A program made the translations under genes and the position numbers. From IMG/VR virus record IMGVR_UViG_3300037502_002145, positions 1 through 64,000 of that record: a stretch of DNA of 64,000 nucleotides; one strand, 5' to 3'. The stretch is from a virus. The notes under the pieces are model-generated. The model saw only the letters and a list, made by a program, of their open reading frames with translations, made no database searches and was not told the origin of the DNA. Positions 405-63,718 of this stretch are shown here, piece by piece. Position 1 is the stretch's first letter; each line of letters begins with the position of its first letter.

Positions 405-455
405 GAATAAAAGAACTGTTTTATACATAATTATGATTAAGGAAGATAAAGGGGC

Positions 456-605
456 GTGACTCATATAGAAAATACCAAAAGCATGGAAGAAATAATAAAA
501 GAAAAACGTAAGGTTGACGGATACAAAATTAAATTTAGCTATGAAAATAAATATACAGTAGAAGAAATGTTAAAGAGAATTATTAAGTCACATATAACTA
601 CATAA
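456..605 (+). CDS. Small basic protein upstream of the integrase (candidate recombination directionality factor)
   Basis: Not in ORF track; (V)THIENTKSMEEIIKEKRKVDGYKIKFSYENKYTVEEMLKRIIKSHITT*, preceded by AAGGGG RBS; start uncertain (456/465/483). Confidence 0.45.
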   Translation: MTHIENTKSMEEIIKEKRKVDGYKIKFSYENKYTVEEMLKRIIKSHITT

Positions 606-719
606 TTGAACAATAAATCAGCTTGTATTAATTTACAGGCTTTTTTATTTTACTATGCCGTAATAGTATGGTATAATATCTAAAGAAGACACCCATTTGC
701 ACATAGGAGGATAAGTAAC

Positions 720-2327
720 GTGGCAAGAATTAAAAACACAATAAGCAAGAACACATATAAGACAGCACTGTATATTCGTTTAAGTCGTGAAGACGGAGAC
801 GACAAGATTGAATCAAATTCAATTACAAATCAAAGAGATATGTTACAAAAATATATAAGTGAAAATAAAGAGTTTGAACTATACGACATATATTCAGATG
901 AAAATTACACCGGTACTAATTTTAATCGTCCCCGATTCAAAGAATTGATATCTGACATAGAAAATGGATTAGTTAATTGTGTTATATGTAAGGATTTATC
1001 AAGATTTGGAAGGGATTATATTGATACTGGATATTATTTAGAAAGATTTTTTCAAGATTATAATGTTAGATTTATCGCTATAAACGATGCCATCGATAGC
1101 CACAAACAAGCTTATGATATGTTACTACCCGTAAAAAATGTATTTAATCAACAATATGCAGTTGATATAAGCAAAAAAGTTCAAAGTGCATTCAAAATTA
1201 AGCAATCTAAGGGGTCATTCATCGGGGCTTTCGCTGGGTATGGATATTTAAAAGATGAACAGAATCACAATAAATTAGTTATAGATGAATATGCTGCTCA
1301 AATAGTAAGACGAATATTTAAGATGTATCTCGAAGGAATAGGCAAGATTAAAATAGCTAAAATACTTAATGAAGAGGGTGTAATGTGTCCAAGTGAATAC
1401 AAGGCTAACAATGGTTTAAATTATACAAACGGTCAAAAAATTGGTAGTACAACATACTGGACATATCCTACTATTCATAGATTGTTACAAAACGAAATGT
1501 ACATTGGTAATATGGTGCAAAATAAAACTGTTAGAAGAATGAAAGGTAAAGCTCGTGCATTACCTAAGGAAGATTGGATAATAGTAGAAAACACTCACGA
1601 TGCAATTATTGATAAAGCGACTTGGGACAAGACTCAAGCTTTACTAAACAAAGATACTAGACAAATTAATTTTAATCAAAATGTTAGTGTATTTGCTGGA
1701 TTTTTAAAATGTAACACTTGTGGTAGATCCCTTGCAAAAAATAAAAGGGGTAAGAATGTTTATTATATTTGTGGATCTTACAAAAGATATGGATCAACAA
1801 TATGTACACCACATACTATCATGCACGAAAAACTTGAAGAAATTGTTTTGGACTATCTAAATTTTATAATAGAAAGAACAAACCAGTTACAAAAGTTAGT
1901 TTTAACACAACAGGAAGGTATAACTAAAACTAATGGTAATATTAAAATTGAGTTGGAAAAAATTAAAATAGCACTTAATAAAATTTACACTTTAAAAAAA
2001 GGAATATATGAAGATTACCGAGAGGGGATACTGAGTAAAGAAGAATATTTACAATATAAAATTGACTACGAAAAAAATGAAGCTATGTATAAAGACAAAA
2101 TTAAAACCTTAGAAGATACCGAAAGTAAAAAACCTAATAATATACTTAATAACGAATGGGTGAAAAGATTTTTAGCAACTAAAAAAATAGACGTATTGAC
2201 AAGAGAAATAATGGCAGATTTTGTAAAAGTTATTAATGTAGACGAAGACAAGCAATTAGAAATAGTCTTAAATTGCAGTGATGAATTCAATGAATTATTA
2301 ACATCTATAGGTAGTGCCGATAAATAA
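720..2327 (+). CDS. Large serine recombinase (phage integrase)
   Basis: YIRLS catalytic Ser, DLSRFGR, recombinase domain, CxxCG...YYIC zinc ribbon, coiled coil; TG-TATAAT promoter at ~669-677. Confidence 0.95.
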   Translation: MARIKNTISKNTYKTALYIRLSREDGDDKIESNSITNQRDMLQKYISENKEFELYDIYSDENYTGTNFNRPRFKELISDIENGLVNCVICKDLSRFGRDYIDTGYYLERFFQDYNVRFIAINDAIDSHKQAYDMLLPVKNVFNQQYAVDISKKVQSAFKIKQSKGSFIGAFAGYGYLKDEQNHNKLVIDEYAAQIVRRIFKMYLEGIGKIKIAKILNEEGVMCPSEYKANNGLNYTNGQKIGSTTYWTYPTIHRLLQNEMYIGNMVQNKTVRRMKGKARALPKEDWIIVENTHDAIIDKATWDKTQALLNKDTRQINFNQNVSVFAGFLKCNTCGRSLAKNKRGKNVYYICGSYKRYGSTICTPHTIMHEKLEEIVLDYLNFIIERTNQLQKLVLTQQEGITKTNGNIKIELEKIKIALNKIYTLKKGIYEDYREGILSKEEYLQYKIDYEKNEAMYKDKIKTLEDTESKKPNNILNNEWVKRFLATKKIDVLTREIMADFVKVINVDEDKQLEIVLNCSDEFNELLTSIGSADK

Positions 2328-2359
2328 CATCACCATGGGGGAATGATATAATTAGGCAC
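2314..2359. other. Putative attP of the serine integrase
   Basis: 46-bp imperfect inverted repeat GTGCC...GGCAC (14 of 22 flanking positions pair) centred on TG at 2336-2337, overlapping the integrase stop. Confidence 0.65.
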
Positions 2360-2451
2360 AAGTAAAATCAAGGGTTTACTAAACTATTTAATACAAATAG
2401 TGCAAAATTAAACATACTATCAATCACACTATTTGTATTAAATTATGTTTA

Positions 2452-3639
2452 TTAACTAGAACAGTAATCACACCATAAAAATTTTGAGCCAATCTTTAAA
2501 TAGGAATAAACAGTATATAATGACAATTTAGTAATTTTAACAATAGTATTTGCATTATGGTTCAGATTCCATAAGTCACAAACTTCTCTGATTCTAGTAC
2601 TACATGAGTACTCATCACATTTATCCCAATCAATAACAGATAGATCGAATAATTCTGTTAAAACACTATTATTGATACTGTCTTTGATATATTCAAACCT
2701 ACTACCGCTATAATTACAATCTATTCTTATTAATTCAACGCCATTTTCGATTGCTAAATTATTCTTAATTGCATCAACTTTAATAAGCTTATCGATAGTA
2801 TCTTGTTTTTTATCAAAAGAATTATAGCCATGACCTAATCCACCATCCATTTCAATTATGTATTCTTTTTCTTCTATTTTAAAATAAAAATCAAAATAAT
2901 ATTTATCACACCAATCAAATGTTTTACGTGAAAGTTCTCTAATAAAGTTTACATTAAGTTGTTCTAAAATGTTATACATAAATTTATTTGGATACGAAAA
3001 TCCGTCACTGCACTTCGGACAAGAAAATCCTTCATGTTTTAGTTTGTGTGGGCTTATTTTCTTTAAAGTACCACATTCAGGGCATATACCATCAAAATAC
3101 TTTCCCGATCCCATTGAGTATTTTTTAGTATCTTCTATGTTTTTAAAATAAGGTACTGCCCATTTATCAGTGGTAAAGATATCATTGTAACCAGTGATAG
3201 TAATTGGATTGTGGCAACACAGTGGGCACCCCTTTTTTGCAACCAATGAATACTCTAATTTTGTCCCCACCCATCCATCTTTAATACATTTAACAACATA
3301 TGCTTTTTTCTTTTTATGAATTGTTTGCTCTAATATTACAAGTTCATTTACCACACTTCCTACTTCGTATTTGTAAATTCCATATAATTGATTTAATAAT
3401 AACCCAAGGTTGCAATTTTTAAGTATGTAAGTTCTCACTTCAACGCCACATTCGTCTGTGTATCCATTTATGTAAATATTAATTTTAGAATTAGTGCTGT
3501 TATAGCTATTTATTTTAATTTCTCCTATAACTTTGTCATAAACAAAATTTACAGTTTTCCCAGCACTATTTTTCCAATCAATGTATTCTTTGTTCCCATA
3601 TTTTCTAACTGGCAAATCATCTAAAAACACTTTTCTCAT
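2452..3639 (-). CDS. Zinc-ribbon plus DUF559/Vsr-like endonuclease (free-standing homing-endonuclease-like)
   Basis: Several CxxC pairs; 'FDFYF...IIEMDGGLGH...D..KN..A..NGVELIRI' nuclease motif; RBS favours MRKVF start. Confidence 0.7.
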   Translation of the reverse strand: MRKVFLDDLPVRKYGNKEYIDWKNSAGKTVNFVYDKVIGEIKINSYNSTNSKINIYINGYTDECGVEVRTYILKNCNLGLLLNQLYGIYKYEVGSVVNELVILEQTIHKKKKAYVVKCIKDGWVGTKLEYSLVAKKGCPLCCHNPITITGYNDIFTTDKWAVPYFKNIEDTKKYSMGSGKYFDGICPECGTLKKISPHKLKHEGFSCPKCSDGFSYPNKFMYNILEQLNVNFIRELSRKTFDWCDKYYFDFYFKIEEKEYIIEMDGGLGHGYNSFDKKQDTIDKLIKVDAIKNNLAIENGVELIRIDCNYSGSRFEYIKDSINNSVLTELFDLSVIDWDKCDEYSCSTRIREVCDLWNLNHNANTIVKITKLSLYTVYSYLKIGSKFLWCDYCSS

Positions 3640-3780
3640 AATATAACCTCGCATTCTTTCATTTGAATTTTAAATAATCGAAAATAGTAACCAATAGAAG
3701 CACAAAATTTCGATTAAAGTTACGTATTTTAGCACATTAAAAAAGCCGAAAACCATTGATTTTACTAGGTTTTCAGCCAT

Positions 3781-4655: not shown

Positions 4656-5543
4656 TTACATTTTATATGTTCCCAAAAGCACATCCCAAGACTTAGTCCC
4701 AATAACACTAGTAGGATTCTTAGCACCCATCACAACTTTCTTCATTTCAATAACTCCATTAGCAGTCTTAGAACCAAAGTCGCCATCAACCTTGCCACAG
4801 TCAAACCCTAACTCATTTAATCGCTCTTGTACTAGAGTAACTAATTCGTTCTTAGTTTTAATTTTTAATGCTTTGCATGCTGATTTAGTTTTAGATCCAA
4901 CTATTCCATCTACAACCAATTCTTTACCGTTAAAATCTTTATAGCCTAATTTATTTAGAGTAGATTGTAGACGTTTTACCCAGTCAGTTGATGGTTTAGT
5001 TAAAATAAAATCAACTTCATAATCAGGTCTACCATAACCGGCTATTCTAGGATTATTCAACGCATATGATTTTTCACATACTGCACCGCCATTAGGAATT
5101 ATATCTTTCCCACTTGAAGTGTTACCCTCAATTGTATATACAGTTGAATTTGTGACTTTTGCAACAATTCCGGTATGATTAATTCTTGCGCTGTTTTCAA
5201 AGAATATAATATCACCAACTTTAGGATTAGAAGTATGCCATCTATTCATTTTTTTAAAGTAGTTAGCAGAAGTAGGAGTATAAGCACTAAAACCGCCTAA
5301 TAATTCTTTTGCCTTATCTTTACCAAATGTCTCAGCGAAAATAACGTCTATGTACATATCACACCAAGCCTGACCTTGATAATTTACACCCGTTAGTTTT
5401 TCATATTCTCTTGCAAATCTGGTATAGTTTTCATCACCGGCATTAACCTTCATACTATCCAGTTGTTTGTTTGATTCTTTTTCTAAATAACCAACATATT
5501 TTTTAGCCGTTTTAATTACTTCTTTTGCAGTTACTTTACCCAT
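4656..5543 (-). CDS. Endolysin (CHAP domain plus two peptidoglycan-binding repeats)
   Basis: 'QAWCDMY', 'HTGIV', 'TIEGNT' CHAP motifs; 'LQ..LN.LG...VDG..G.KT' twice; RBS favours MGKVT. Confidence 0.92.
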   Translation of the reverse strand: MGKVTAKEVIKTAKKYVGYLEKESNKQLDSMKVNAGDENYTRFAREYEKLTGVNYQGQAWCDMYIDVIFAETFGKDKAKELLGGFSAYTPTSANYFKKMNRWHTSNPKVGDIIFFENSARINHTGIVAKVTNSTVYTIEGNTSSGKDIIPNGGAVCEKSYALNNPRIAGYGRPDYEVDFILTKPSTDWVKRLQSTLNKLGYKDFNGKELVVDGIVGSKTKSACKALKIKTKNELVTLVQERLNELGFDCGKVDGDFGSKTANGVIEMKKVVMGAKNPTSVIGTKSWDVLLGTYKM

Positions 5544-5603
5544 AATATCATTCCTTTCATATAAATAGGAGAGTAGTACAACACCACTCTCCATAATCAG
5601 TAG

Positions 5604-5957
5604 CTATTCAGTTTTACCAGTTACAACTTCTTTAACTTTTTCATTTTTCTCTAACATTTCACGCATTTCATCTAATGCTTCATCTACCCAAAAACTAAAC
5701 ATTTCAAATGAAACCAACTTAGCAGCAACTTTAAATCTAGTGGTAAACAAATCATAAACATATCTTAGCTTTAATTGACCCGTACCAGAACCTAATTCTT
5801 TTTCTGCTAATGTAACCCAGTATAACAACATCTTCTTAATTTTTATTACTTGTTCCTTAGTTGGTAATCCAGCAAACTTATATACAGCAAATACAACTCC
5901 AAACAATAAAGCCAATAAACCAACTACTATGTACCAATTTTCAATTAACCATTCCAT
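5604..5957 (-). CDS. Holin-like membrane protein
   Basis: N-terminal TM; 'V..AEKELGSGTGQLKLRYVYD' LL-H-like holin motif; adjacent to endolysin. Confidence 0.7.
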   Translation of the reverse strand: MEWLIENWYIVVGLLALLFGVVFAVYKFAGLPTKEQVIKIKKMLLYWVTLAEKELGSGTGQLKLRYVYDLFTTRFKVAAKLVSFEMFSFWVDEALDEMREMLEKNEKVKEVVTGKTE

Positions 5958-5960
5958 AAA

Positions 5961-6224
5961 TTATTCCTCCATTTCATTAACTTGATCAATAGTTTCTTTA
6001 CCATACTTTTTTAATAACTTAATTTCGTTTTCTTTCTTTGCCTTTGAAAAATAGAATCCAGTAGCAACGGACATTTCACCAAAGACGGAAGGTATTAAAT
6101 AGGAGAGAGCAGAACTATCTCCGGTTTTCCACATTAAAGCCATACTATAAATAATTACAACAACAGTAAAAATAGTAACCATGTAAAATATCTTCTTGCT
6201 AAATTCCATCTTAGTTTTCTTCAT
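5961..6224 (-). CDS. Two-TM lysis-cassette membrane protein
   Basis: Two hydrophobic segments, 'GFYF.KAKKEN' tail. Confidence 0.6.
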   Translation of the reverse strand: MKKTKMEFSKKIFYMVTIFTVVVIIYSMALMWKTGDSSALSYLIPSVFGEMSVATGFYFSKAKKENEIKLLKKYGKETIDQVNEMEE

Positions 6225-6835: not shown

Positions 6836-6988
6836 AAAACTATTAAATATTTGGGCTTATATAAGCCATTAAAAATAATTAGGCAATAATTTATACCTAA
6901 ATGTATTTTAAATCGTTTTAAATAGCTTGTAGCGAATTCAGTTATGTTGCATATTGCGTAAAAATCCGTAGTCAATAAAACACCGATT

Positions 6989-9301
6989 TTATAGTATTCC
7001 ATATATACGCACACCTTTAGTGCTTGGAGAATATGAGGCAATACCACTAGATGTTAAATTTTGCCCATTTTGCATAGATGTGGTTACAGTTTTTCCACTA
7101 TAGGAAAATCGAACTTGATATGAAATACTAGATCCATCTGAATTTATATTTTTCCAAACAGCTTGTGTTTGCGACGTTTTGTTTATAGGGAAAGACTGAC
7201 TTATACCATTAATATTTAACTCAACAACCAGCATTGAGTAATAGTCTGGATAATCAACAAGTTCAAAAGTTGTTGGTATATCACTGGTGTTGGTATATAA
7301 TACGTTGCGACCAATTATAGTGCTATTCGGGTTTGTTTTTGTAATACCCGCATGTACTGCTGATTTATTAACATCTATTTTTGATTGATTGACGTTACAA
7401 GGCTTACTTATAGCACCGCTTATTGATATTAGCCCACCGAAGTTTGCATCTATAAAGTTAGCAGTTGAACAAGTTACGTTAAGCATAGAGACGTATGATC
7501 TTTCGCTTCTAATTGCATAAGCAGATAACGGGTTATTTTGAGTTACATTTATATTAAGTAATGAAATAGTACTATCTGTTATTAAAATACCCTTAACATC
7601 GGCGCTTGACGGAGCGTTTAAATACAAAGAATCTATGCCATGTATTCTTACACCAGAATAACTACCACTGCTAATTTCAACAACTACAGCACACCCAGAT
7701 TCTATTAATGGTATTGAATTTATTGCTTGCTGTATTTCTTTAAATGGGTTGGTGGCCGTGCCGTTCATCATAACCCCATTATAAGAGTTATCGACATATA
7801 ATGTAATTATTGGATTTGGTGCTGCATTTTGATATATTTGCTTTGTCCTATCAGATGTTTGGATATTAAAATCAGTCTTAGTTATAAACGTTTCAAAAAA
7901 ATTGCGCTCATTATTGGAAGGGGTGTTCCATCCAATATAAAAATTACCCGTTCCATCATTCGTTATAAATTCGCTTTCCATCAATACATGACGTTGTAGC
8001 TTGATAGGATTTTCAAAAATCTTTTGTATTGTCATATCAATCGTATTAACACAAATGCATATGTCTGGGGAAAAACACAGCATATATAATACGTGGTCGT
8101 GATAAGTCAATCCGCACCCATTTGTGCCTGTTTTTTTAGGCAGTCCTATATTCACATCTTTGACAAAATTCATCTCATTATCTAACACCTTAATGGTTAA
8201 ATATTCATTTGTACCTGTTGTTAATACATACCATTCATTATTATCTATATTATAAGTCAATGATATGCAATTATAATTTTTTACTATAGTATTTGTAAGA
8301 GTAAAAGTAGCGTAGTCTATTACATAAATATCTGTACCAGTTGATGTTATGTATAAGTTACCTTCCTTATATTCAATGTCGTTACCATGTCCTATGGGGA
8401 GTACAGCTTCTCTTATAGTGTTACCGGTATACAAATCAATTTCCACTAATTTTTGATAATCACCAACTTCATTGATAGTTGTAGCATAACATATCACTAA
8501 TGTTTCTTGGTTATCAATTTTAACATAGCATCCACCCTGCATTACCATATAATCATCACTGTATTTTATATAGTTATACATAACATTAGTTTTAAATTGA
8601 CCTATTATCGGCAGTTGTGATTTGTTGATTTTACCATTATCACTCAATGTCGATACACCATTAGGATTTCCCTTTTCAGACGAATTTATCTTATTTAATT
8701 CCAACTCATTGACAGCCCCCACCAAATCAGCGTTTGATGTTGTTTCTAAAAGCGATAAATCACCAATTTTTTCATCTGCATAAGCAAATACATCGGTCGC
8801 TTTACCTTGTGGATCATAAATCGAGGACATCATATCGCCTCCAACACCATCTGTTCCTTTAGCAGCAATACATTTCCACCAGGTATTATCAGTGTTATAA
8901 GTTGGGGCATTACCAATTGTTTCTAAAATACATTGATATGTCCCACCTTGATCTGTAACTTTATTACCTACTTTATATGCTTTATCTGGATCATAACTTT
9001 CTAATTTTTTATACTCGTTATAAAATTCTTGTCTTACAACCTCTGCGTCCGATACATTTTGAGCAACTGTATTAGCATTTGTAGCTGCGTTATTCGCATT
9101 AGTGGTAGCAGTATTTGTTGCATTTATCGCATTAGTAGTGTTTGTTTCTCTATCTATTTCAGCTAATTGTCTTTCAGCTTCACTTAATTGTCTTTCTGAT
9201 TCTTTTTGATTTATTAAATTATTTGTTTGTATTACATTACCAATTAACCGAGGAGATATTATTTCTTTATCGCCCCAATAAACCTTTTTTATTTCTGACA
9301 T
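6989..9301 (-). CDS. Tail fibre / receptor-binding protein
   Basis: Ala/Asn/Thr coiled coil, CBM-like 'Y.VG.KV...G..YQC...WW', hinge 'KGNPNGVSTL...GKI..SQLP', propeller-like 'GHGND' region, 'GT..NPFKEIQQAI' beta-helix start. Confidence 0.8.
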   Translation of the reverse strand: MSEIKKVYWGDKEIISPRLIGNVIQTNNLINQKESERQLSEAERQLAEIDRETNTTNAINATNTATTNANNAATNANTVAQNVSDAEVVRQEFYNEYKKLESYDPDKAYKVGNKVTDQGGTYQCILETIGNAPTYNTDNTWWKCIAAKGTDGVGGDMMSSIYDPQGKATDVFAYADEKIGDLSLLETTSNADLVGAVNELELNKINSSEKGNPNGVSTLSDNGKINKSQLPIIGQFKTNVMYNYIKYSDDYMVMQGGCYVKIDNQETLVICYATTINEVGDYQKLVEIDLYTGNTIREAVLPIGHGNDIEYKEGNLYITSTGTDIYVIDYATFTLTNTIVKNYNCISLTYNIDNNEWYVLTTGTNEYLTIKVLDNEMNFVKDVNIGLPKKTGTNGCGLTYHDHVLYMLCFSPDICICVNTIDMTIQKIFENPIKLQRHVLMESEFITNDGTGNFYIGWNTPSNNERNFFETFITKTDFNIQTSDRTKQIYQNAAPNPIITLYVDNSYNGVMMNGTATNPFKEIQQAINSIPLIESGCAVVVEISSGSYSGVRIHGIDSLYLNAPSSADVKGILITDSTISLLNINVTQNNPLSAYAIRSERSYVSMLNVTCSTANFIDANFGGLISISGAISKPCNVNQSKIDVNKSAVHAGITKTNPNSTIIGRNVLYTNTSDIPTTFELVDYPDYYSMLVVELNINGISQSFPINKTSQTQAVWKNINSDGSSISYQVRFSYSGKTVTTSMQNGQNLTSSGIASYSPSTKGVRIYGIL

Positions 9302-9316: not shown

Positions 9317-10411
9317 CTATTTAACGAATTTGTATAATCTAAAATGTACTTTTTCACCACTTGGAATAGTCCAACCAGTTAAATTAATCGATTTGTAATC
9401 AGCCGAATGAGTATAGTTATCTGTTTCTTCTAAAACTACCCCTTTATATATAATCATCAAGTCATCTCGTGTTGGGTTGAAGTTAAGATTATGAGTTATG
9501 CTTGAAGTAGTAGCGGTAGTAGTGTAAGTAAAAATTCTCATTCTCTGTGCTATATTGTTACTAGACCAAGTTTGAACCGTATTTACATCATTGTCGTTTA
9601 TATTATTCTGCGATATTACTACTTGCTGAGCTGCCTCTTTTGCAGTATTTGTATCATTGATTAATGTTGTTAATTCATCGGCTAAATCATCATTACTTTC
9701 ACTATCTGAAATAAGATGGAAGTACAACAAATCATCTTTTTCAGTTTGAGTTAAAGCATCATATTCAGCCTGAGTCATGGTTAACCAATCTGGAATTCTA
9801 GCATCTTTTTCTACTCTTGCAGTTTCGGCTTGTTCACGACTTGCTTCGGCACTTGTCACATCTTGATTTAACTGAATCATTTCGTTAGTAGCGTTAATTG
9901 CATTAGTGGTAGCCGTTTCCATATCTGTTAACTTTTGATTAATTAATGTTATCAATCCAGTAATTGTATTAATCATTATCGTAAGAGTATCGAATTTACT
10001 AGAACCTACAACGGCATTTCTGTCTATGGCAGACTTCTCAACCAACACCTTAAAAGAGGTAGACTGAATTAATTCATCTTTTGTCGTATCACCTTCTGGA
10101 TCTGGTTTATACAATCCAATCTCAGCAACGACAGTTCCAGCTACAGCAGTTAAATCTTCGGTTACTGTATATATTATTTTATTAGTAGATATTTCACAGT
10201 CATTTAATATTGGCTCTCTACGTTCATTTGTTGCTTGAAATTTAGCCACGTATCCACTTGGTATTTCAAGTATATTTCCATCTTCATCTACAAACTCGAC
10301 TTCAATTTTACGTGAGTTTTTATCATTCTGTTTAACCGTGATAGCTTTGTAACCTAATTGACCATCACCACTTAAACCAACTTTTACATTTTTTATATCT
10401 GGAAAAGCCAT
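9317..10411 (-). CDS. BppU-family baseplate upper protein
   Basis: 'VKQNDKNSRKI', 'LTAVAG.V.AEI', 'F.V.VEKS' N-terminal domain. Confidence 0.8.
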   Translation of the reverse strand: MAFPDIKNVKVGLSGDGQLGYKAITVKQNDKNSRKIEVEFVDEDGNILEIPSGYVAKFQATNERREPILNDCEISTNKIIYTVTEDLTAVAGTVVAEIGLYKPDPEGDTTKDELIQSTSFKVLVEKSAIDRNAVVGSSKFDTLTIMINTITGLITLINQKLTDMETATTNAINATNEMIQLNQDVTSAEASREQAETARVEKDARIPDWLTMTQAEYDALTQTEKDDLLYFHLISDSESNDDLADELTTLINDTNTAKEAAQQVVISQNNINDNDVNTVQTWSSNNIAQRMRIFTYTTTATTSSITHNLNFNPTRDDLMIIYKGVVLEETDNYTHSADYKSINLTGWTIPSGEKVHFRLYKFVK

Positions 10412-10536
10412 ATTTTACCTCCCTTTTGTTGAATTTTTGGTCAAAAATGGATATAAATAGTATCAAATAATACCAAATATAGCCTATTTTTCACGATAAA
10501 AGTATTATTTTATTTACAGTGTTATATTAGTGTTCT

Positions 10537-10935
10537 TTACTCCGTATCATCCTCAATCATAAAGTCTAAATCGAAGAGTATAGCGGACTTAATTTTGTCT
10601 ATTTTTCTTAAATCAGAATATTTTATAGTTAAGAAATCAACTTCATTTACACATCTTAATAATTCACCTTGTTCTTTAGTGAACTTTTCTTTATTAGCTG
10701 GAGCAAATTTAGGCTGACCATTTTCTTCGTATCTAACTTTTAACTCATCATCTTTGATTGCATATTTTTGAACCAATTCACCTTCCATTTCTGAAAATGT
10801 CTTATATAGTGATTCTAGCTTTTTCATATTCTTTTTTAAATTCCAAGCTGTATCCATAGGTACTTCATAAGCCATTAACTGACGTAAAAGTTCCATGATG
10901 TTTAACATTTCAAGATTATTAATTTTCTTTACCAT
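10537..10935 (-). CDS. DUF1617-like phage tail-region protein
   Basis: 'AWNLKKN.K.L...LVQKYA.KD...F.KE..ELL'. Confidence 0.55.
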   Translation of the reverse strand: MVKKINNLEMLNIMELLRQLMAYEVPMDTAWNLKKNMKKLESLYKTFSEMEGELVQKYAIKDDELKVRYEENGQPKFAPANKEKFTKEQGELLRCVNEVDFLTIKYSDLRKIDKIKSAILFDLDFMIEDDTE

Positions 10936-29371: not shown

Positions 29372-29461
29372 TTTACCTCCATATAACTCTAAAATAATCA
29401 CACAGTATGTGATAAATCGTTACTTAAATTTCATGTTTTGTGGATAAATGTTGTATTTTAT

Positions 29462-42928: not shown

Positions 42929-43384
42929 TTATACATTACCTAATGAGAAAATATCAATCTCACTATCACTTTCCATTTGATGTACAATTAGCTCATCATC
43001 GCATTCTACGTCAATATAACAATGATGTTCACCAAAATATTTATAACAACTATCTTCATCCATTGCTTTTTCAATTGACAAGATAATATGTGGAACATCA
43101 AATTGCTCCATATAAATTGTAATTGCATATTCTTTAGCATAGTCAACTTTATCTAAGTCTACTTTTTCAACATCAAAACAAACTTCATCAACGTTACGTA
43201 AAGATAAGAATGTCTCCAATATATTTTCAGCTAAATATTCGCCACCAAAAATAACAACAGAAGAGTATTCTCCGTCACGCATTTTATTTATGTATCTCAA
43301 TGTATCGAGTGCATCCTCTAAAAGGCAACTGTCACAACAAAAATCGATTACTTCGTATTCTGCTAGTAAATCCATATTCACCAC
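42929..43384 (-). CDS. Acidic hypothetical protein
   Basis: ORF with coding-like composition in the late operon. Confidence 0.6.
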   Translation of the reverse strand: MVNMDLLAEYEVIDFCCDSCLLEDALDTLRYINKMRDGEYSSVVIFGGEYLAENILETFLSLRNVDEVCFDVEKVDLDKVDYAKEYAITIYMEQFDVPHIILSIEKAMDEDSCYKYFGEHHCYIDVECDDELIVHQMESDSEIDIFSLGNV

Positions 43385-47671: not shown

Positions 47672-47703
47672 AGTAATAACCCTCTTTCCATAATGTATTT
47701 TTG

Positions 47704-47865
47704 TTATTTAACTATGATTGATTTTCTGTACTTCTCTAAAAACTGTAATACACTTTGTTTCTCTACCACCAGTTTACGATGATATGTTCCGTGGCCACAT
47801 ATAACATATTTAGCCATACCATTTGATCTTAAAACTTCTGCTTCTTTGTCTGTAATAGGTTTTAT
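47704..47865 (-). CDS. Small conserved-type phage protein, ATA start
   Basis: AAGGA RBS then IKPITDKEAEVLRSNGMAKYV...VVEKQSVLQFLEKYRKS. Confidence 0.45.
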   Translation of the reverse strand: MKPITDKEAEVLRSNGMAKYVICGHGTYHRKLVVEKQSVLQFLEKYRKSIIVK

Positions 47866-47911
47866 AAATTATTCCTTCTTTCTTTTTAAATTTTCTCACG
47901 ATAGGAGAGAG

Positions 47912-47995
47912 CGGAAGATGAGGGAATTGAACCCCCAGTACTGTTACGTATCACTAGATTTCAAGTCTAGCTCCTTACCATTAGGATAACCTTCC
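47912..47995 (-). tRNA. tRNA-Ser (anticodon UGA)
   Basis: GGAAGGT/ATCTTCC acceptor, TCCT-AATGGTA-AGGA D arm, CTAGA-CTTGAAA-TCTAG anticodon arm, long variable arm, GGGGG-TTCAATT-CCCTC T arm, G discriminator, no encoded CCA. Confidence 0.93.
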
Positions 47996-48407
47996 ATAAT
48001 AAAAAGACTCCCATTTCTGAGAGTCCTTATTGTTGGGATTTCACTCCCTAATTGCACTATGTTGAGATTTCAGTCTCGATTCTTTGTTTAAAAACCGGTA
48101 AATGCATTACATAAACCGTGGTCTTATTCTACACATGGTAGAAAAGATAATATCTTAACTGTAAGTCCGGAGAGCATTACAGTGTGATCCGCTTTTATTG
48201 CAGTGAGCATGTTGTATTTAGCACCACACCCACTGCGAGAGGAGAGTATATGAAAATCTTATGTAGACTTGAAGTTGAATGAAAGAGATGTTTTATAGTT
48301 TTATATTAATATTCTATATCATAAGTTAAGAAAAAATATAATGCGTGTAAACCCAGTAAAATCAAGGGTTATAGCGATTTTAACTTTTTAAAACAACTGA
48401 CCACAAA

Positions 48408-49364
48408 TTATTGATTTTCACGTATTTTACGCATAGTTTCTGTTTTTTTCTTTCTGCGATATGTCTTATAACATTCATCACATCTTGTTTTTGTCATGTT
48501 TCTTGCATCTACTTCAACTTTTACACCACAATCAGTGCATTGTATCTCTTTGGTTTCAATAGGAATATAATATTGTTTATGCTCACTGCAATATAATATA
48601 TCATGTTTCGTTTGTTTAAATGGTTGATTACAGTGCTTACATAGTTTTATATTAATTACATTGCTGTAAAAATCATAGTACCAGCCTATATTATCAAAGT
48701 TTTTAATAGTTATACAGACGTTACAATCATTGCCTGTCTTGCTTTCTTTTAAATTATTCAAATCATCCATGAAATTTAGTTTAATTAAACCATTGAACAA
48801 TACAGTAATTATCCCTGACTGCCCAAGTGAGTATATTATATCATCATTAATTTTAATTTTATCATTAATTTTTGATGCTTTTTTTAGATCATTATATTTT
48901 TTATTTCCGCCTTTAAAATATAACCCTTTTGATTCTTCACCGTTTTTTTGTTTACTTATATGTTTATTTAATTTCATTAGACACAATAAAGTAAAAACTA
49001 CTTTTTTGCAATCGTAACTAAATTTTACAATTTCACCATCTTCGTTACATATCTGCAAAGTATCAATATAAGCAAGTTCATAATCATAAACAGTAATTTC
49101 ATCAACCTTTATTAATGCGCTACCTTTTTTGCAGGCTTGATTTATTGCTCTGTTTATAATCTTATAGTGCTTAACTTTATTATATTCAGGTATGTATTTA
49201 CTACAAAAGTTATACATGACCTCTCTCAAGTCTTTTGGTTTATAATTTAAATATCTACGTAAGTATGTAGCAACCAATCTTAATTCTGTTACAATGTGTT
49301 TAGTTTGAAACCCATTTTCGTATATCGTCTTTGCATACTCTAATTCGTTATATTTGTAGTTCAT
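48408..49364 (-). CDS. RNAP-linked protein with C-terminal zinc fingers
   Basis: Starts 1 nt after the RNAP stop; C-terminal CxxC/CxxH/CxxC/CxxC. Confidence 0.7.
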   Translation of the reverse strand: MNYKYNELEYAKTIYENGFQTKHIVTELRLVATYLRRYLNYKPKDLREVMYNFCSKYIPEYNKVKHYKIINRAINQACKKGSALIKVDEITVYDYELAYIDTLQICNEDGEIVKFSYDCKKVVFTLLCLMKLNKHISKQKNGEESKGLYFKGGNKKYNDLKKASKINDKIKINDDIIYSLGQSGIITVLFNGLIKLNFMDDLNNLKESKTGNDCNVCITIKNFDNIGWYYDFYSNVINIKLCKHCNQPFKQTKHDILYCSEHKQYYIPIETKEIQCTDCGVKVEVDARNMTKTRCDECYKTYRRKKKTETMRKIRENQ

Positions 49365-52281: not shown

Positions 52282-52371
52282 TAGATTTACCTCCAATTCT
52301 CCTTAAATATTATTTGTTTATTTAATGCCATTATCAAACCTCCAATTTCTTTGTTAGATATATTTAAAGTT

Positions 52372-52638
52372 TTATATTAGTTTCGTTTTAGCTTGTTCTT
52401 CTAAAACCTTAAAAATATAATTTACTTTTCCATATGAACTTGTGATAGTAGCAATTCTTTTAATTAAATATGATTTATAATCTTCATAAATGGTCAATAA
52501 AAGAGATAAATCATAATTTTGTGTTAAAATTTTTATTTTCTTACCAACGTATCCATTCAGTGCCGTATTATTATTTAATAATTCCTCTATAATACCCTTA
52601 TGTAGTTGAATTCTTAATTCTTTATTTACGTTATCCAT
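52372..52638 (-). CDS. Hypothetical protein
   Basis: AGGAG RBS; in the helicase-RNAP operon. Confidence 0.6.
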   Translation of the reverse strand: MDNVNKELRIQLHKGIIEELLNNNTALNGYVGKKIKILTQNYDLSLLLTIYEDYKSYLIKRIATITSSYGKVNYIFKVLEEQAKTKLI

Positions 52639-52651: not shown

Positions 52652-53866
52652 TTAATGTTTTATATTAGTGCCGTTAGATACTTCATCAATCCATTGTATA
52701 AGTAGTTTTCTCATTCTACTACTTGGTATGTATAACCAAATTTCTTTATTTTCTCTTATTGCAGATCTCCATATAAACTGTAGCATTTCACTTACGGCAT
52801 AAGCATCTTCCTCAACAGTAATACCATTCTGTGTAAAGAAATTCTTAATGCAAGGATTAAAATATTTGTTAATCAAGTAAGCAACAGCAATTCTATCTCT
52901 ATATTCATTTGTTGCTCTAACATTGGAAGATACAAAGCCTTTGGCATAACCTTTACCTGCTACCAATGGTTTAAATTTTTTGAACGTAGTCCATAAGTTT
53001 TCACTTGATTTTGTTTTTGTATAATTCTTAAAATAATTACCGGTTGCATTCTTTAGTTGTTTCATTAATTGATTATTCTGATTCCTTAAATACCAAGTTT
53101 TTGAGAGGGATGATTCCATATCTCCTATACGATTAAGCTTTGCATTATCGCAAATATGTATTAATTTATTATAATCAGGTACTTTGTAATCAACAACCTC
53201 AGTAGTAAACTCATAGTTGTTTATATTGTCGCCCTTAATGTACAAATATGTATACTCAACCCCGTAGTAGTCATAGTAATACTTTTGAGTTTGAGCATTG
53301 AACATGTAGGTTAATATATAAATATTTCTAAATGCTCTAAAAGTAGTAATAGGGAACAACCACAACATAGCAACATCACTATATATGGCTAAACAATGTA
53401 AATCACATAACCTTTTTTCATCTTGAAATTTACCATCGTAATCTTTAGCATGCCAATTTAATAATCCATTCTCATCAACATGAACATATTTGTCTAGCAT
53501 AGTGTTTAAATCATCTTTAGATATCTCGTATGGTTCTATGACATCAGCCACCTCATCCATAATTAACGTATAATTATTAGCATAAGCAAGATCAATTATT
53601 TCTTCATCAAACATACTAAACAGTGAATGAGTAGATACAATATTGTATCCTTTCTCAAACAGATGTTTAATACCATTTAATTTACTTCCATATGTCTCTG
53701 GTTGTTTAAAATTTTTATTAACACAACTAGTCATTATTCTTTTTACTTCTGTCAGATATGGGGTTATGTATAAAAACTTTACATCATCATCTGAATTGTT
53801 AATAAAGTTTATACTACTGCTGGTCTTACCAGCTCCCATAACTGCATCAATTACATTTACATTCAT
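52652..53866 (-). CDS. Compact SF2 helicase-like protein
   Basis: Walker A 'MGAGKT', 'YITPY', 'STH.LF', 'IMDEV', 'ILTY', motif VI 'QFIWRSAIR'. Confidence 0.8.
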   Translation of the reverse strand: MNVNVIDAVMGAGKTSSSINFINNSDDDVKFLYITPYLTEVKRIMTSCVNKNFKQPETYGSKLNGIKHLFEKGYNIVSTHSLFSMFDEEIIDLAYANNYTLIMDEVADVIEPYEISKDDLNTMLDKYVHVDENGLLNWHAKDYDGKFQDEKRLCDLHCLAIYSDVAMLWLFPITTFRAFRNIYILTYMFNAQTQKYYYDYYGVEYTYLYIKGDNINNYEFTTEVVDYKVPDYNKLIHICDNAKLNRIGDMESSLSKTWYLRNQNNQLMKQLKNATGNYFKNYTKTKSSENLWTTFKKFKPLVAGKGYAKGFVSSNVRATNEYRDRIAVAYLINKYFNPCIKNFFTQNGITVEEDAYAVSEMLQFIWRSAIRENKEIWLYIPSSRMRKLLIQWIDEVSNGTNIKH

Positions 53867-54231: not shown

Positions 54232-54298
54232 AGTTTTATATTAATCTCATTAAACTATATCATACCAATGATTAGGTTGTCAACAGTTTTATATTAAT
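54232..54298 (-). promoter_or_regulatory. Sigma-A promoter of the helicase-RNAP operon, flanked by two ATTAATATAAAACT sites
   Basis: TTGACA (54283-54278)-18-(TG)TATAGT; identical 14-mers at 54232 and 54285. Confidence 0.7.
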
Positions 54299-54624: not shown

Positions 54625-55545
54625 ATGAGTAAGATTAAAGGATTGGATCATGGTTATCTCTATACTAAGGACAATGAGAAGCGTATATTTAGGTCAGCAT
54701 TTACTAAGTCAGGTTTAGCTATGGGAGCAACATCATTTATCACTATTAATGGAGTTGACCATTCTGTTGGTACTGGTAATAGAACAATTTCATTTGATAA
54801 AACTGATTCTGATATGAATGAGGTGGGAACATTAACAATGTTAGCTATGGACGGAGACAATGATTATTATCTTGTAGTTGGATTGCCTATAAGCCAATAT
54901 CAATCTCAAAAGGATAAGTTTAAGAAAATGATTATGGGATACAACGATAGAGAAGTAATATACCGTGGTAAGAAGATGGATATTAAGATTAACGATGTAT
55001 ATGTATTACCACAGGGAGTAGGAGCATTACTTAGTCTTGATGAGTTAAAGGGTAATATCGTTATATTTGACTTTGGTGGTTTAACTATTGATATTGCCAG
55101 TATAGAAATTGTATATGGCAATCCAGTGTTGAAGAAATATGATACATGGACTGAGGGAATACAGAAGATTTATTCTAGAGTGGTTAATGCAGTTAATGAG
55201 AAATATAATCTAACACTTGATGTATCAGAGGCAGAGAATATATTAGTTAATGGTTTAACTTTATATGGGGAGAAAGTGTCAACTGATTTTCTTGAGCCAG
55301 TATTAAGACAATATCTTGACCCTATACTAACCAATTTCAAAGTTAACTTTACCGATATTAATTCACAAGTTTATCTATGTGGTGGTAGTGCTATTATATT
55401 TGAGAGTTTGTTTAAAACACATTTTCCACATGCAAGGTTAATGTACAATAGTCAATTTGCTAATGCAATCGGATATCATAAGTGTGGCTTACAAAAGTAC
55501 GGACATTTATGTGACATTAAACCACAGCCGATATGTAGGAGGTAA
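54625..55545 (+). CDS. parM: ParM/StbA-family actin-like ATPase
   Basis: 'GLDHG...TK', 'VVGLP', 'PQG', 'FDFGGLTID', 'LCGGSA', 'ANA.GY'. Confidence 0.9.
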   Translation: MSKIKGLDHGYLYTKDNEKRIFRSAFTKSGLAMGATSFITINGVDHSVGTGNRTISFDKTDSDMNEVGTLTMLAMDGDNDYYLVVGLPISQYQSQKDKFKKMIMGYNDREVIYRGKKMDIKINDVYVLPQGVGALLSLDELKGNIVIFDFGGLTIDIASIEIVYGNPVLKKYDTWTEGIQKIYSRVVNAVNEKYNLTLDVSEAENILVNGLTLYGEKVSTDFLEPVLRQYLDPILTNFKVNFTDINSQVYLCGGSAIIFESLFKTHFPHARLMYNSQFANAIGYHKCGLQKYGHLCDIKPQPICRR

Positions 55546-55856: not shown

Positions 55857-57119
55857 ATGGCAGCAAAGAAAAGTTTTAAGAAGAATATCGTTACTAACAG
55901 TATGTATTCATTACTAAGTGGAGTTGGATTACAGGCTTTAATGCCTATGTTTGTTGAGAATGGAGGTGGTACTGAAAATCTATTGTTATATCTGTTAAAG
56001 GCATTTGGTATATTGGGTATATTCTATTATGCATGGACTTGGAGTAAATTTGATAAGCTATTTGAGAATTTAGGGCTAGGTATAGATGGTGCTTACCCTA
56101 TAATGAAAAGTAAGCGTAAGACAGATTATAGCGAGATATATAAGTTTACATTACCTAGAGGATTGAGTTTGGCTGACTTTGATAAGCATAAAGATGCGAT
56201 TGAACAATTCCTCGGCAGAAAGATAGATATTAAGTATACTTACAAGGAGATTTATATTGAGGTGTACAACGAGAATCAGAAGACGTTGTATGAATATGTA
56301 CCTACTAAAATTAAAGGTGAAGTTCCTATTATGGTGGGATATGACCGTAAGGGTGAATTACATGGTTGTGATTTATCAGATGGTGAACCACATATGGGTA
56401 TCTATGGAGAAACTGGTAGTGGAAAAAGTACCGTGCTTAGAGCTATAATAACCAATTTAATTCTTATGTCGAATGTTATACTTCATCTAGTGGATCTTAA
56501 AAATGGTGCAGAACTTAATATTTTCCGTAAGTCTAGTAAGGTTAAAAGTTTTTGTAGGAGTATTAATGAAACAGAAAAGTTACTCGAAGATTTAGTTTCT
56601 GAGGTTGATAGACGATATGATTTGTTTTATGAAAATGATGTTAAGGACATAAAAGAGTATAATAAAAAATTCAAAAATAAGAAAATGAATTATCAGGTGT
56701 TAGTTATAGATGAGTTTGCAGACTTAAAGCCAAAGTCCGATAGTATGAAGAGCTTAAAAGAACTAGGACGTAAAAGTAGAGCATCAGGAGTCCACATCAT
56801 AATTGCGACTCAAAGACCTTCATCTACAGTGTTAGATGGAGATATTAAAGCCAACGTAACCTCTATACTTGGCTTAAAAACCATGAATGGAACAAATAGC
56901 TCAGTAGCCATGGATGAAACTGGATTAGAAAAATTAAGAGGTAAAGGTCATGGTATATTTAAGCGTGGGGGAAAAGTTGAGATTCAAGCTCCATTCTTAG
57001 ATCCGGATAGAGCTAGAGATCTAATTAAGCATACGTTTATTGATAAGAAAGTTGAAAAAGAAGTCAAGAATGGTAATGTATCAGAGGATAGTATATTAGA
57101 GGCGGTGAGTAATTTATGA
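55857..57119 (+). CDS. Membrane-anchored FtsK/SpoIIIE-family ATPase
   Basis: Two N-terminal TMs; 'PH..I.GETGSGKS', 'VDLK.G.E', 'VIDEFA', 'ATQRP', 'L.GKGHG'. Confidence 0.92.
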   Translation: MAAKKSFKKNIVTNSMYSLLSGVGLQALMPMFVENGGGTENLLLYLLKAFGILGIFYYAWTWSKFDKLFENLGLGIDGAYPIMKSKRKTDYSEIYKFTLPRGLSLADFDKHKDAIEQFLGRKIDIKYTYKEIYIEVYNENQKTLYEYVPTKIKGEVPIMVGYDRKGELHGCDLSDGEPHMGIYGETGSGKSTVLRAIITNLILMSNVILHLVDLKNGAELNIFRKSSKVKSFCRSINETEKLLEDLVSEVDRRYDLFYENDVKDIKEYNKKFKNKKMNYQVLVIDEFADLKPKSDSMKSLKELGRKSRASGVHIIIATQRPSSTVLDGDIKANVTSILGLKTMNGTNSSVAMDETGLEKLRGKGHGIFKRGGKVEIQAPFLDPDRARDLIKHTFIDKKVEKEVKNGNVSEDSILEAVSNL

Positions 57120-57683: not shown

Positions 57684-57722
57684 AAAGGGTGGATGTAAAA
57701 TAATCCCCCCTTTATTTTTTTT
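57684..57722 (+). terminator. Intrinsic terminator after the par/FtsK operon
   Basis: AAAGGGTGGAT...ATCCCCCCTTT plus T-run. Confidence 0.7.
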
Positions 57723-57768
57723 GTTTATTTGTTTTAATATTGGACATACTGTGGGTGAGGTGAAGTCT

Positions 57769-58302
57769 ATGGAAGAGTTAATAATTTTAGTATTGATATT
57801 ATATTGTATGTATGCATTTGGTAATCAGTTTACTAAGATAGAATATCAAAAATTTAAGAATAATAAGCCAGTAGGAGATATTGGTGAGAAAATAGTTAAG
57901 AGTAGACTAGATAGATTATCTGATGAATTTGTTGTTTCTCATGATGTTTATTTTGGTAATGCCCAGATAGATCATCTAGTTGTTAGCCATGAGAAGAATA
58001 TTATATTTGTGATTGAGACTAAGATGTGGGGAGGTATTATTACTGGGGAATGTAATGATGCTAAGTGGGAACAGAATAAGGGTGGTCAGATTAAGTATTT
58101 AGATAATCCTATGATGCAGAATAAATATCATTGTAGGGTGGTAAGAAAGTATTATCCGGACTATAAAGTTTACAATGTTGTTGTCTTTGTGAGAAATACA
58201 AACGTACCAAATTACCCTAGCGTTATGAATGAGAATAATTTAGTTGATTATATTTATAGGGTATCTAAAAAGGTATCTAATAGGGTTATAATTGGGGTAT
58301 AA
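57769..58302 (+). CDS. NERD-domain nuclease-like protein with N-terminal TM
   Basis: 'G..GEK.V', 'QIDHLVV', 'FVIETK..GG', 'NP..QN..H'; GAGGTG RBS. Confidence 0.88.
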   Translation: MEELIILVLILYCMYAFGNQFTKIEYQKFKNNKPVGDIGEKIVKSRLDRLSDEFVVSHDVYFGNAQIDHLVVSHEKNIIFVIETKMWGGIITGECNDAKWEQNKGGQIKYLDNPMMQNKYHCRVVRKYYPDYKVYNVVVFVRNTNVPNYPSVMNENNLVDYIYRVSKKVSNRVIIGV

Positions 58303-60263: not shown

Positions 60264-60306
60264 CTAATATAAAACTATAGACAAATAAGTTGAACTATGA
60301 TATAAT
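60264..60306 (+). promoter_or_regulatory. Early-region sigma-A promoter with upstream CTAATATAAAACT site
   Basis: TAGACA-17-(TG)TATAAT at 60278-60306. Confidence 0.75.
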
Positions 60307-61143: not shown

Positions 61144-61184
61144 ATTGAACTAACATTTTATTCATATTTTAGGAGGTACAGGCA

Positions 61185-61364: not shown

Positions 61365-61411
61365 CAGTAAATAGAATTAAGAATTTATCAATATTATAGG
61401 AGGATCTATCC

Positions 61412-62468: not shown

Positions 62469-62519
62469 ATAGACTATAAAATCCTTGTTTTGTTGACAAG
62501 GTAGAAAAGAGGTAAACAG

Positions 62520-62718: not shown

Positions 62719-62961
62719 ATGAAAACGGTTGATAATGATAAAATGACAATTACCTATGAAGATGAAAAGCTATCATGTAAGAAATTTATTTATTTAACTT
62801 ATGCAGATAGTAGCGACATAACATTTATCATGGAAGATATAATTGATATAAAATCAGGGCAATACGTTAGCATGGAAGTAAAAGGCTTTTTCTTTGGTGA
62901 ACCAACAATGGAAGGACTAAACGAATATTATAATAAGTTAAAAGCAGAATTCACATTATAA
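62719..62961 (+). CDS. Small early protein
   Basis: GAGGT RBS before MKTVD; 'GFFFGEP' motif. Confidence 0.6.
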   Translation: MKTVDNDKMTITYEDEKLSCKKFIYLTYADSSDITFIMEDIIDIKSGQYVSMEVKGFFFGEPTMEGLNEYYNKLKAEFTL

Positions 62962-62982
62962 AATGAAAGGAAATAATAATAT

Positions 62983-63180
62983 ATGATTATTCAAGCAAGT
63001 AAAACAGAGGAAAATATTTATTTCAACTATGGAGAAGTTAACGAAACAGATCTAGAAAAATTAAAAGATATAGCAGAAGACATATTTCCTATACTGTGCA
63101 ATTCATGGAATTGCGATGATATTACATTCAGATTTGTAAATAACAAAAAAATAATCGATACATTTAGATTATGGAGTTAA
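62983..63180 (+). CDS. Small early protein
   Basis: AAAGGA RBS. Confidence 0.55.
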   Translation: MIIQASKTEENIYFNYGEVNETDLEKLKDIAEDIFPILCNSWNCDDITFRFVNNKKIIDTFRLWS

Positions 63181-63231
63181 ACAGAAACAGTAAACAAAAC
63201 AATTATTTGATTTAAATAGAAGGAGTTTAAC

Positions 63232-63405
63232 ATGATAACAAAAAGTGATATAGAAATGAAAACTTATGCAATATGGAAAGATCAGAAAGTAATAGGTTAT
63301 ATTGAACTAACAGAAGAACAAGCAAACAAATTAAACAGTAATCCTTTAACTGGTTTATATTTTGGTTTTGACAGAGTAACGAATCCAGAAAAGTATGTAC
63401 ATTAA
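63232..63405 (+). CDS. Small early protein
   Basis: AAGGAG RBS; 'IGYIELTEEQA..LN....GLYFG'. Confidence 0.55.
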   Translation: MITKSDIEMKTYAIWKDQKVIGYIELTEEQANKLNSNPLTGLYFGFDRVTNPEKYVH

Positions 63406-63444
63406 TAGAAAGGCTATTTGATCTTATAAGGAGGTTATAAAACA

Positions 63445-63681
63445 ATGTTTGAAATTGACAAAGATTATTTTGCAGACAATCCGCGAAATTATGATGATTG
63501 GATTAAGTATCCGATTACAGTATTCAAAAGAACAAAAAATTATTTATGGATTTACCACAAACACACGTTAAAAGATGAAGAGACTATAAGCGAGGATAAG
63601 TGCAAAAAGGTTAAAATTTATATGACAAATGGAGGATATGAGGGAATAAAAGTTAATGATGCATATTTTTATGCAGCATGA
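63445..63681 (+). CDS. Small early protein
   Basis: AAGGAGG RBS; 'ITV.KRT'. Confidence 0.6.
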   Translation: MFEIDKDYFADNPRNYDDWIKYPITVFKRTKNYLWIYHKHTLKDEETISEDKCKKVKIYMTNGGYEGIKVNDAYFYAA

Positions 63682-63718
63682 AAGGGTTATTTTATCACTA
63701 GGAAGGAGATATTGAACA

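Follow-up and report, generated by a model that had tools for sequence, protein, structure and literature searches.

Dyad-symmetric sites with copy-specific six-base centers at the gene junctions of an SPbeta-like phage: possible joints for cassette exchange

The window analyzed in this study, the first 64,000 nt of the 115,871-bp IMG/VR record IMGVR_UViG_3300037502_002145 (completeness rated 81%), comes from a phage that carries copies of the dyad ATAAAA-N6-TTTTAT at its gene junctions. One of its proteins matches YonO-type RNA polymerases, and the phage is therefore SPbeta-like. We found that the dyad is enriched at a single spacing, lies mostly between genes, and coincides in related phages with limits of homology, while each copy has a six-base center of its own. 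On balance, we favor the reading that the copies are in-register ("addressed") crossover joints for cassette exchange, built on a site that is predicted to be bound by protein as double-stranded DNA (dsDNA). That a dedicated site-specific reaction operates at them is a more tentative portion of this reading.

RESULTS

Enrichment and spacing of the dyad

A first-pass annotation had listed 14 copies of the dyad. The three perfect copies that it placed at 407, 6975, and 10496 are present, against 0.20 expected, and 0 of 100 shuffled sequences reached three. Twelve copies in the window have at most one mismatch (4.7 expected), and none of the 100 shuffles had as many. With up to two mismatches allowed, the window total of 52 showed no excess over shuffles (51.8 expected); since this total equals chance, a single two-mismatch copy is unconvincing by sequence alone.

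Over the whole genome, the N6 spacing gave 13 perfect copies and 37 with at most one mismatch, compared with 0 to 3 and 4 to 18, respectively, at the other spacings between 0 and 20. The same hexamers in reversed or direct-repeat arrangement were not enriched genome-wide. The annotation had suggested a comparison of coding sequence with junctions, and its outcome favors junctions: non-coding DNA, 16% of the genome, holds 33 of the 37 copies, and the A+T content of coding and intergenic DNA is almost equal (the G+C content of the phage is 30%). Within intergenic DNA alone, these 33 copies at N6 compare with 0 to 6 at other spacings.

The copies in this genome usually take the form ATAAAA-N6-TTTTAT, with TAAAA-N6-TTTTA as the core, and single arm mismatches, A-C included, are common. 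A weight matrix trained solely on copies beyond the window was used to score the 14 listed sites. Nine scored strongly (13 to 17.6 bits), three moderately (10.3 to 11.5 bits), and two marginally (6.5 to 7.1 bits); 12 of the sites thus stand, and those at 61144 and 63194 remain marginal. Two extra copies absent from the list are probably due to chance, one inside a coding sequence (32639) and the other overlapping a ribosome-binding site (34166).

Position of the dyad relative to genes

Relative to the upstream stop codon, the dyad starts at -4 to +9 nt, and the TAA within ATAAAA often is this stop codon, in agreement with the placement at stop codons and in short gaps described in the annotation. 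In the early region (plus strand), the dyad ends about 17 to 26 nt ahead of the next start codon and about 8 nt ahead of the Shine-Dalgarno sequence. In the late region, it still adjoins the stop codon, and 40 to 300 nt can separate it from the next start. About half of the co-directional gaps of 30 to 70 nt carry a dyad. Genuine copies are also found in convergent gaps, which have a stop codon and no ribosome-binding site, and in divergent gaps, which have a ribosome-binding site and no stop codon.

No -35, -10, or other upstream promoter element is conserved at the dyads, most of which are inside operons. The downstream flank can be read as -10-like, and it is the mirror image of the upstream flank. 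We rejected a promoter reading because no upstream element is conserved and because the -10-like flank would put the start of transcription inside the Shine-Dalgarno sequence. The suggestion that the motif is a master operator fares poorly as well, since most copies are intra-operonic without a conserved promoter and the known operator of SPbeta, SPBRE, is different and asymmetric.

Distribution among phages and hosts

In an unbiased scan of all k-mer/reverse-complement pairs, the dyad ranked first in this genome (13 copies versus 0.55 expected) and in Bacillus phage BUCT082 (15 versus 0.37). Perfect TAAAA-N6-TTTTA cores number 15 in this phage, 37 in BUCT082, and 34 in SPbeta, nearly all of them intergenic, and other spacings give 0 to 7. 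A nucleotide search of the window against the phage collection gave no match, and the relatives of this phage were reached via protein matches; the core is the top dyad in two groups of its own IMG/VR relatives. In the Bacillus phages, the symmetry continues beyond the core, giving a half-site consensus over about 32 bp and arms of up to about 13 bp. The dyad is not described in the searchable literature on SPbeta and its relatives.

The chromosomes of five host genomes showed no motif excess; in four of them, the count did not exceed, or barely exceeded, that of the control pattern, and in Bacillus rugosus the surplus copies cluster on a contig with an SPbeta-like prophage. This lack of excess makes a host factor unlikely as the binder.

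The centers are never reused within a genome, all perfect-core copies being distinct in this phage (15/15), BUCT082 (37/37), and SPbeta (34/34). An REP- or MITE-type repeat was rejected on the grounds that every perfect-core copy has a different center and that the flanks are not conserved. A sequence close to TTTAGAATAAAAATAAAAT stands directly beside several dyads in Bacillus phages, at 113680-113700 and 132763-132783 in SPbeta and at 63327-63351, 77586-77610, and 97694-97718 in BUCT082, among others.

Homology breaks at the dyad in related phages

The annotation had proposed that related phages be aligned to see where gene insertions and deletions break, and homology breaks and cassette replacements were indeed found at dyads. 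SPbeta and BUCT082 have 23 identical six-base centers in common (0.6 expected), which occur in the same order. By flank homology, which was confirmed at the protein level, seven of these centers have both flanks conserved and nine have one flank conserved, the gene on the other side being unrelated. The remaining seven have neither; these "islands" keep only the 16-bp site between unrelated genes. Among the ends of intergenic BLAST blocks between the two phages, 12 of 53 fall on dyads, compared with 3.1 expected, a fourfold preference over other intergenic positions. The offsets pile up at the core edges (positions 0 and 15 to 19), the range being -3 to +2 for left ends and 15 to 19 for right ends.

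Three SPbeta junctions, each placed in the query so that the core spans positions 101 to 116, were searched across about 30 phages of the collection. The limits of homology were at the core edges, the matches ending at 105, 117, 117, and 106 or starting at 100, and all four combinations of left-flank and right-flank homology were present. In phi3T, the end of yoqG with TAAAA is joined directly to the center AGACTG of the next SPbeta dyad; judged from the sequences, this junction is an exact loss or gain of the yoqH-yoqI cassette. The left and right contexts of the AGACTG site reassort among SPbeta, Goe11, phi3T, and BUCT082. The arm variants travel with the adjacent flank while the center stays common.

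In the clade of the phage studied here, two relatives (L006 and L007) could be compared with each other, and three of eight block ends came to no more than 2 nt from the edge of a dyad. At 6975, the site's 16-mer (TAAAACACCGATTTTA) is present unchanged in both, with unrelated flanks. The center of the 48279 site (GAGATG on the plus strand) recurs in both, again between unrelated flanks; its left arm in the window has one mismatch. The center GGGTTA is common to this phage and another relative (L059), but the two copies are not in syntenic positions, and we took the match to be a coincidence.

Candidate binding proteins and recombinases

The annotation had pointed to an intact tyrosine recombinase that is not needed for integration. 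The protein encoded at 25662-26681 keeps all six tyrosine-recombinase catalytic residues, and the serine recombinase encoded at 720-2327 is the likely integrase. The former is an orthologue of SPbeta YomM (34% identity). The geometry of the dyad is that of a tyrosine-recombinase core site, with inverted arms around a six-base asymmetric center at strictly N6. A second protein of the tyrosine-recombinase family (Pfam Phage_integrase) is encoded in the early region beyond the window, at genome positions 72438-73427 (L046, 8438-9427). This protein seems to retain the Arg, His-x-x-Arg, His, and Tyr residues, and it has no clear orthology to either YopP or YopR of SPbeta. The best matches of the two tyrosine recombinases are Xer-type chains, with IntI4 reached only at E = 0.09. 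An HU-type phage protein was considered as the common binder and rejected, with no PF00216 match in the 81% complete record. In SPbeta, YorG is annotated as a Sak4-like annealing protein.

A known genome-wide binder of SPbeta, MrpR (YopR, SroF), binds SPBRE (PMC10516654), and SroF reads 24 to 26 bp as a monomer, while the role of SroE is still unclear according to the same 2025 preprint (bioRxiv 10.1101/2025.11.27.690993). We derived a box common to seven reported MrpR target regions, approximately AAAAAATATGTATATA. This box is asymmetric and unrelated in sequence to the dyad, which is palindromic and mostly away from promoters, and the dyad was therefore rejected as an SPBRE operator.

The window also has seven perfect copies (0.46 expected) of a further repeated motif, TAATATAAAAC, which often has AAGGAnAT ahead of it; the genome-wide count is 22. 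Nearly all copies are in the sense orientation of the local genes, directly ahead of a Shine-Dalgarno sequence or of a TTGACA-N17-TATAAT promoter. These are also the two placements of SPBRE in SPbeta, where it precedes the yopM ribosome-binding site and the -35 element of aimR. We regard TAATATAAAAC as a candidate for the operator used by the master repressor of this phage or, alternatively, for a phage-specific promoter. On the minus strand, a perfect TAATATAAAAC copy is followed directly by the 48279 dyad. An ORF-free stretch (no open reading frame) of about 770 nt downstream of the YonO operon, 47642-48407, is headed by a TAATATAAAAC copy that is followed at once by a dyad.

Other features of the phage

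The features located in the window are listed in Table 1. The window also encodes a portal protein and a tape-measure protein of 1,790 aa. YonO, the marker polymerase of the SPbeta family, has homologues in many Bacillota genomes, and among phages the best relative of the polymerase found here is that of BUCT082 (46% identity), SPbeta being more distant (25%). An anaerobic ribonucleotide reductase is encoded beyond the window, as are two IS605 OrfB/TnpB-type genes in the early region (genome positions 70616-71836 and 87507-88538). Beside the divergent early region are the genes for an actin-like segregation protein (ALP_N/MreB-like, 54625-55545), an FtsK/SpoIIIE-like ATPase (55857-57119), and a NERD nuclease (57721-58302), a set that could hint at a plasmid-like maintenance option besides integration.

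In L007 (positions 4869-6173), homologues of the last genes of the record (genome positions 115044-115761) come immediately before that of its first ORF (window positions 1-404), and the integrase is next. The two ends of the record thus adjoin in this relative, and the record may therefore be circularly permuted or nearly complete across its ends. Just past the serine-integrase gene is a conserved segment, 2313-2361, with the inverted repeat GTGCCG ... GGCAC around CATGGGGGAATGATATAAT. It is common to L006, L007, and a third relative, L008, and all homology ceases beyond it, which makes it a candidate attachment site. The end of homology near 2362 was not counted as a dyad joint, since a weak dyad is there only in the window and an attachment region is likelier.

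TABLE 1 Dyad copies and other features located in the window
Feature	Position	Strand	Score (bits)	Context
Dyad, perfect	407-424		16.5	Spacer GAACTG; 2 nt past stop of ORF 12-404
Dyad, perfect	6975-6992		17.6	Spacer CACCGA; TAA of arm is stop of 770-aa gene 6989-9301(-)
Dyad, perfect	10496-10513		16.2	Spacer GTATTA; gap between 10537-10935(-) and 9317-10411(-)
Dyad, 1 mismatch	24318-24335		13.0	Gap upstream of tape-measure gene
Dyad, 1 mismatch	27226-27243		14.4	Abuts stop of 27243-27680(-)
Dyad, 1 mismatch	29444-29461		13.2	Immediately past stop of 29462-29662(-)
Dyad, 1 mismatch	42893-42910		13.6	18 nt past stop of 42929-43384(-); beside near-copy of TAATATAAAAC
Dyad, 1 mismatch	48279-48296		14.1	Spacer CATCTC on minus strand (GAGATG on plus); head of late-gene block
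Dyad, 2 mismatches, marginal	61144-61161		6.5	Placement fits; score at threshold
Dyad, 2 mismatches	61371-61388		10.4	Small early genes, between stop and ribosome-binding site; moderate
Dyad, 1 mismatch	62476-62493		11.5	Between small early genes; moderate
Dyad, 2 mismatches, marginal	63194-63211		7.1	Placement fits; score at threshold
Dyad, 2 mismatches	63405-63422		10.3	Overlaps stop of 63232-63405; moderate
Dyad, 1 mismatch	63678-63695		14.7	Overlaps stop of 63445-63681
TAATATAAAAC, perfect copies	48298-48308, 48644-48654, 52369-52379, 52657-52667, 54233-54243, 54286-54296	-
TAATATAAAAC, perfect copy	60265-60275	+		15 further copies beyond the window
Large serine recombinase	720-2327	+		Probable integrase (SprA-like role)
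YomM-family tyrosine recombinase	25662-26681	-		Late operon; R-K-H-R-H-Y catalytic set intact; candidate enzyme only
YonO-type single-chain RNA polymerase, 976 aa	49366-52296	-		Pfam RdRP match (PF05183)

DISCUSSION

In the comparisons between related phages, the centers are kept in order while the intervening genes are replaced, lost, or gained, and the copies therefore behave as addressed crossover joints. We give somewhat better than even weight to this reading. A dimer of a phage protein would probably read the dyad on dsDNA. The site is found in almost any non-coding gap, and the TAA of an arm often serves as the upstream stop codon too. The six-base center of each copy would be its address. 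Exchange might then take place inside the site, either through a tyrosine recombinase acting at the spacer borders or through short-homology annealing across the shared site of about 16 to 32 bp; annealing of this kind would give the same products as a recombinase. The copies in the phage studied here presumably work like those of the better-sampled Bacillus phages.

A dedicated site-specific reaction is the portion of this reading that we advance only tentatively. In one form, which we consider possible rather than probable, the phages would carry out a natural recombinase-mediated cassette exchange, with the unique center as a heterospecific overlap and a YomM-family or other phage recombinase-fold protein as the enzyme. 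Swaps would then occur solely between equivalent junctions of co-resident phages, and the gene order would be preserved.

Several points weigh against crossover at the dyads. Some junctions break 5 to 12 nt away from the dyad; the break in Goe11 is 12 nt off, and that in the phi3T group is 6 nt before the 95129 site (query position 95). The gaps are so short that viable junctions lie near dyads in any case, and selection for gene integrity therefore contributes to the coincidence. The identity of the spacers among the B. subtilis phages could reflect recent common ancestry rather than selection for an address. The relatives of the phage studied here are distant, with about 75% nucleotide identity at best, and the direct evidence for this phage therefore consists of two shared spacers and the comparison of L006 with L007. 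Close relatives of its YonO were not found among species-representative genomes. The binding protein and the recombination reaction are both putative. As for the enzyme, the annotation had linked the dyads to the recombinase encoded at 25662-26681, a link that did not hold up well: YomM of SPbeta has a Lys in place of the second catalytic Arg (Arg II), and a relative (G007) carries a 70%-identical YomM orthologue, yet shows no dyad excess. YomM is only a candidate for the cognate enzyme, and the link is weak, with the phyletic check in G007 speaking against it.

The most serious alternative, which we nevertheless consider clearly less probable than crossover joints, is that the dyad is a purely regulatory or architectural site, such as a silencer, a transcription roadblock, or a genome organizer, bound by a phage dimer. 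Recombination would then be incidental, arising because nothing but the dyad is conserved in every gap, a situation similar to that of PeSLs in T4-type phages. The two-fold symmetry without covariation and the half-site consensus of about 32 bp in Bacillus phages suit such a site, as do its confinement to phages, its presence in about half of the short co-directional gaps, and the genuine copies in convergent and divergent gaps. Some copies also adjoin promoter-like motifs, and selection for a binding function explains the conservation of the arms in distant phages more easily than does selection for evolvability. However, most copies are inside operons without a conserved -35 or -10 element, and the dyad is not accounted for by either of the two genome-wide binders known in SPbeta, the MrpR/SroF box being different and asymmetric (PMC10516654; bioRxiv 10.1101/2025.11.27.690993). 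Regulation alone also leaves unexplained the 16-bp islands that keep their unique center while both flanking genes are replaced.

We also considered whether the dyad acts as RNA on the polycistronic mRNA, as a hairpin that folds after the stop codon and ahead of the ribosome-binding site and weakly terminates transcription, directs processing, or controls translation as an operator. The early-region copies do lie directly past stop codons and about 8 nt ahead of Shine-Dalgarno sequences, and a few long perfect versions in SPbeta have been annotated as stem-loops by the depositors. However, the minimum free energy of the 18-mers, about 0 kcal/mol, equals that of shuffled sequences, and that of the 32-mers is only -1.5 to -2.6 kcal/mol. 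Mirrored positions vary independently (the counts at one pair are CG 9, TA 7, CA 6, and TG 5) and show no compensatory changes, while single arm mismatches, A-C included, are common. Pairing among the six central bases is rarer than expected by chance, and the spacers are not self-complementary. An intrinsic terminator was rejected in view of the A-U-only arms of 5 to 6 bp, the folding energy of about 0 kcal/mol, and the absence of a T run after the arms. Copies also occur in divergent and convergent gaps and far from start codons. The independence of mirrored positions, the folding energy, and these gaps therefore count against a hairpin and against terminator or translational-operator roles, and we consider an RNA-level function improbable. 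The two-fold symmetry, the strict 6-bp spacer, and the lack of a hairpin signature agree with a dimer on dsDNA, as the annotation had envisaged in one of its two options, and the dyad fits a two-fold symmetric, predicted protein site on dsDNA that is fitted into the available non-coding space.

An integron-like system, with folded attC-type sites and an IntI-type integrase, had been put forward in the annotation and finds still less support. The sites do trail the stop codons of ORFs, the cassettes are single small genes in one orientation, and the phage encodes tyrosine recombinases. However, the site spans 16 to 18 bp rather than 57 to 141 bp, has no GTTRRRY box and no stable fold, and the recombinases match Xer-type enzymes best; an attI/Pc platform is not known here, although no search was aimed at one. 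We regard such a system as very unlikely. Finally, a chance product of A+T-rich intergenic DNA would agree with the two-mismatch total in the window, but it is already refuted by the enrichment of N6 alone, the lack of enrichment of the rearranged hexamers, the nearly equal composition of coding and intergenic DNA, and the first rank of the same motif in independent genomes.

Comparison with known systems

Whether phage mosaicism arises through special linkers or through random joining followed by selection has been debated since the modular theory of the 1970s. SPbeta is a tractable model phage of Bacillus subtilis, and the dyad gives it a defined, short, countable site of about 35 copies that marks swaps of accessory genes; the question of linkers versus random joining thus becomes directly testable in this phage. 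The genes swapped at dyads include some from the lysis-lysogeny and host-interaction regions. If a dedicated enzyme acts at the dyads, engineered cassette exchange would have a natural counterpart in them. The dyad is also of practical use as a landmark where the accessory-gene cassettes of SPbeta-like phages and prophages are to be delimited.

Heterospecific lox and FRT sites, acted on by Cre and Flp, are used for recombinase-mediated cassette exchange; they have 13-bp arms and are engineered uses of single natural sites. Like the dyad, at which catalysis is putative, they have inverted arms around an asymmetric spacer of 6 to 8 bp, and a difference in spacers would confine exchange to equivalent sites, in line with the unique centers that the dyads keep in order. 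The attC sites of integrons are similar to the dyad in lying directly past the stop codons of single-gene cassettes, but they measure about 57 to 141 bp, carry R''-L''/L'-R' boxes with a GTTRRRY core, and fold as single-strand hairpins.

The pdif sites and dif modules of Acinetobacter plasmids, which are recognized by XerC/XerD, offer another parallel (Mindlin et al. 2019, PMC6449649). As described there, many dispersed short sites with inverted arms and a 6-bp center lie in accessory regions and flank accessory genes, which are found in varied contexts. In the same account, pdif sites differ from the dyad in having 11-bp arms, in being recognized by the host XerC/XerD, and in resembling chromosomal dif. 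The dyad has conserved arms of 5 bp (up to about 13 bp in Bacillus phages) with the sequence TAAAA/TTTTA, and its recombinase is only a candidate; the lack of motif excess on host chromosomes is uninformative for a single-copy dif.

In T4-type phages, PeSLs combine a sigma70-like promoter with a terminator stem-loop and act through homology, according to Arbiol et al. 2010 (PMC2839356). They, too, recur in intergenic DNA, between small non-essential genes of plastic regions, where genes are inserted, deleted, or replaced through recombination between the copies (PMC2839356). Unlike PeSLs, the dyad has neither a conserved promoter nor a stable stem-loop, and it consists of 10 to 12 fixed bases plus a copy-specific center.

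Within the same phage family, SPBRE is also dispersed and intergenic, and it is bound by MrpR, a repressor with a tyrosine-recombinase fold (PMC10516654), the binder of the dyad being putative. SPBRE is asymmetric and is read by a monomer over 24 to 26 bp, with about 10 bound copies at promoters (PMC10516654; bioRxiv 10.1101/2025.11.27.690993), whereas the dyad is palindromic, about three times as numerous, and mostly intra-operonic.

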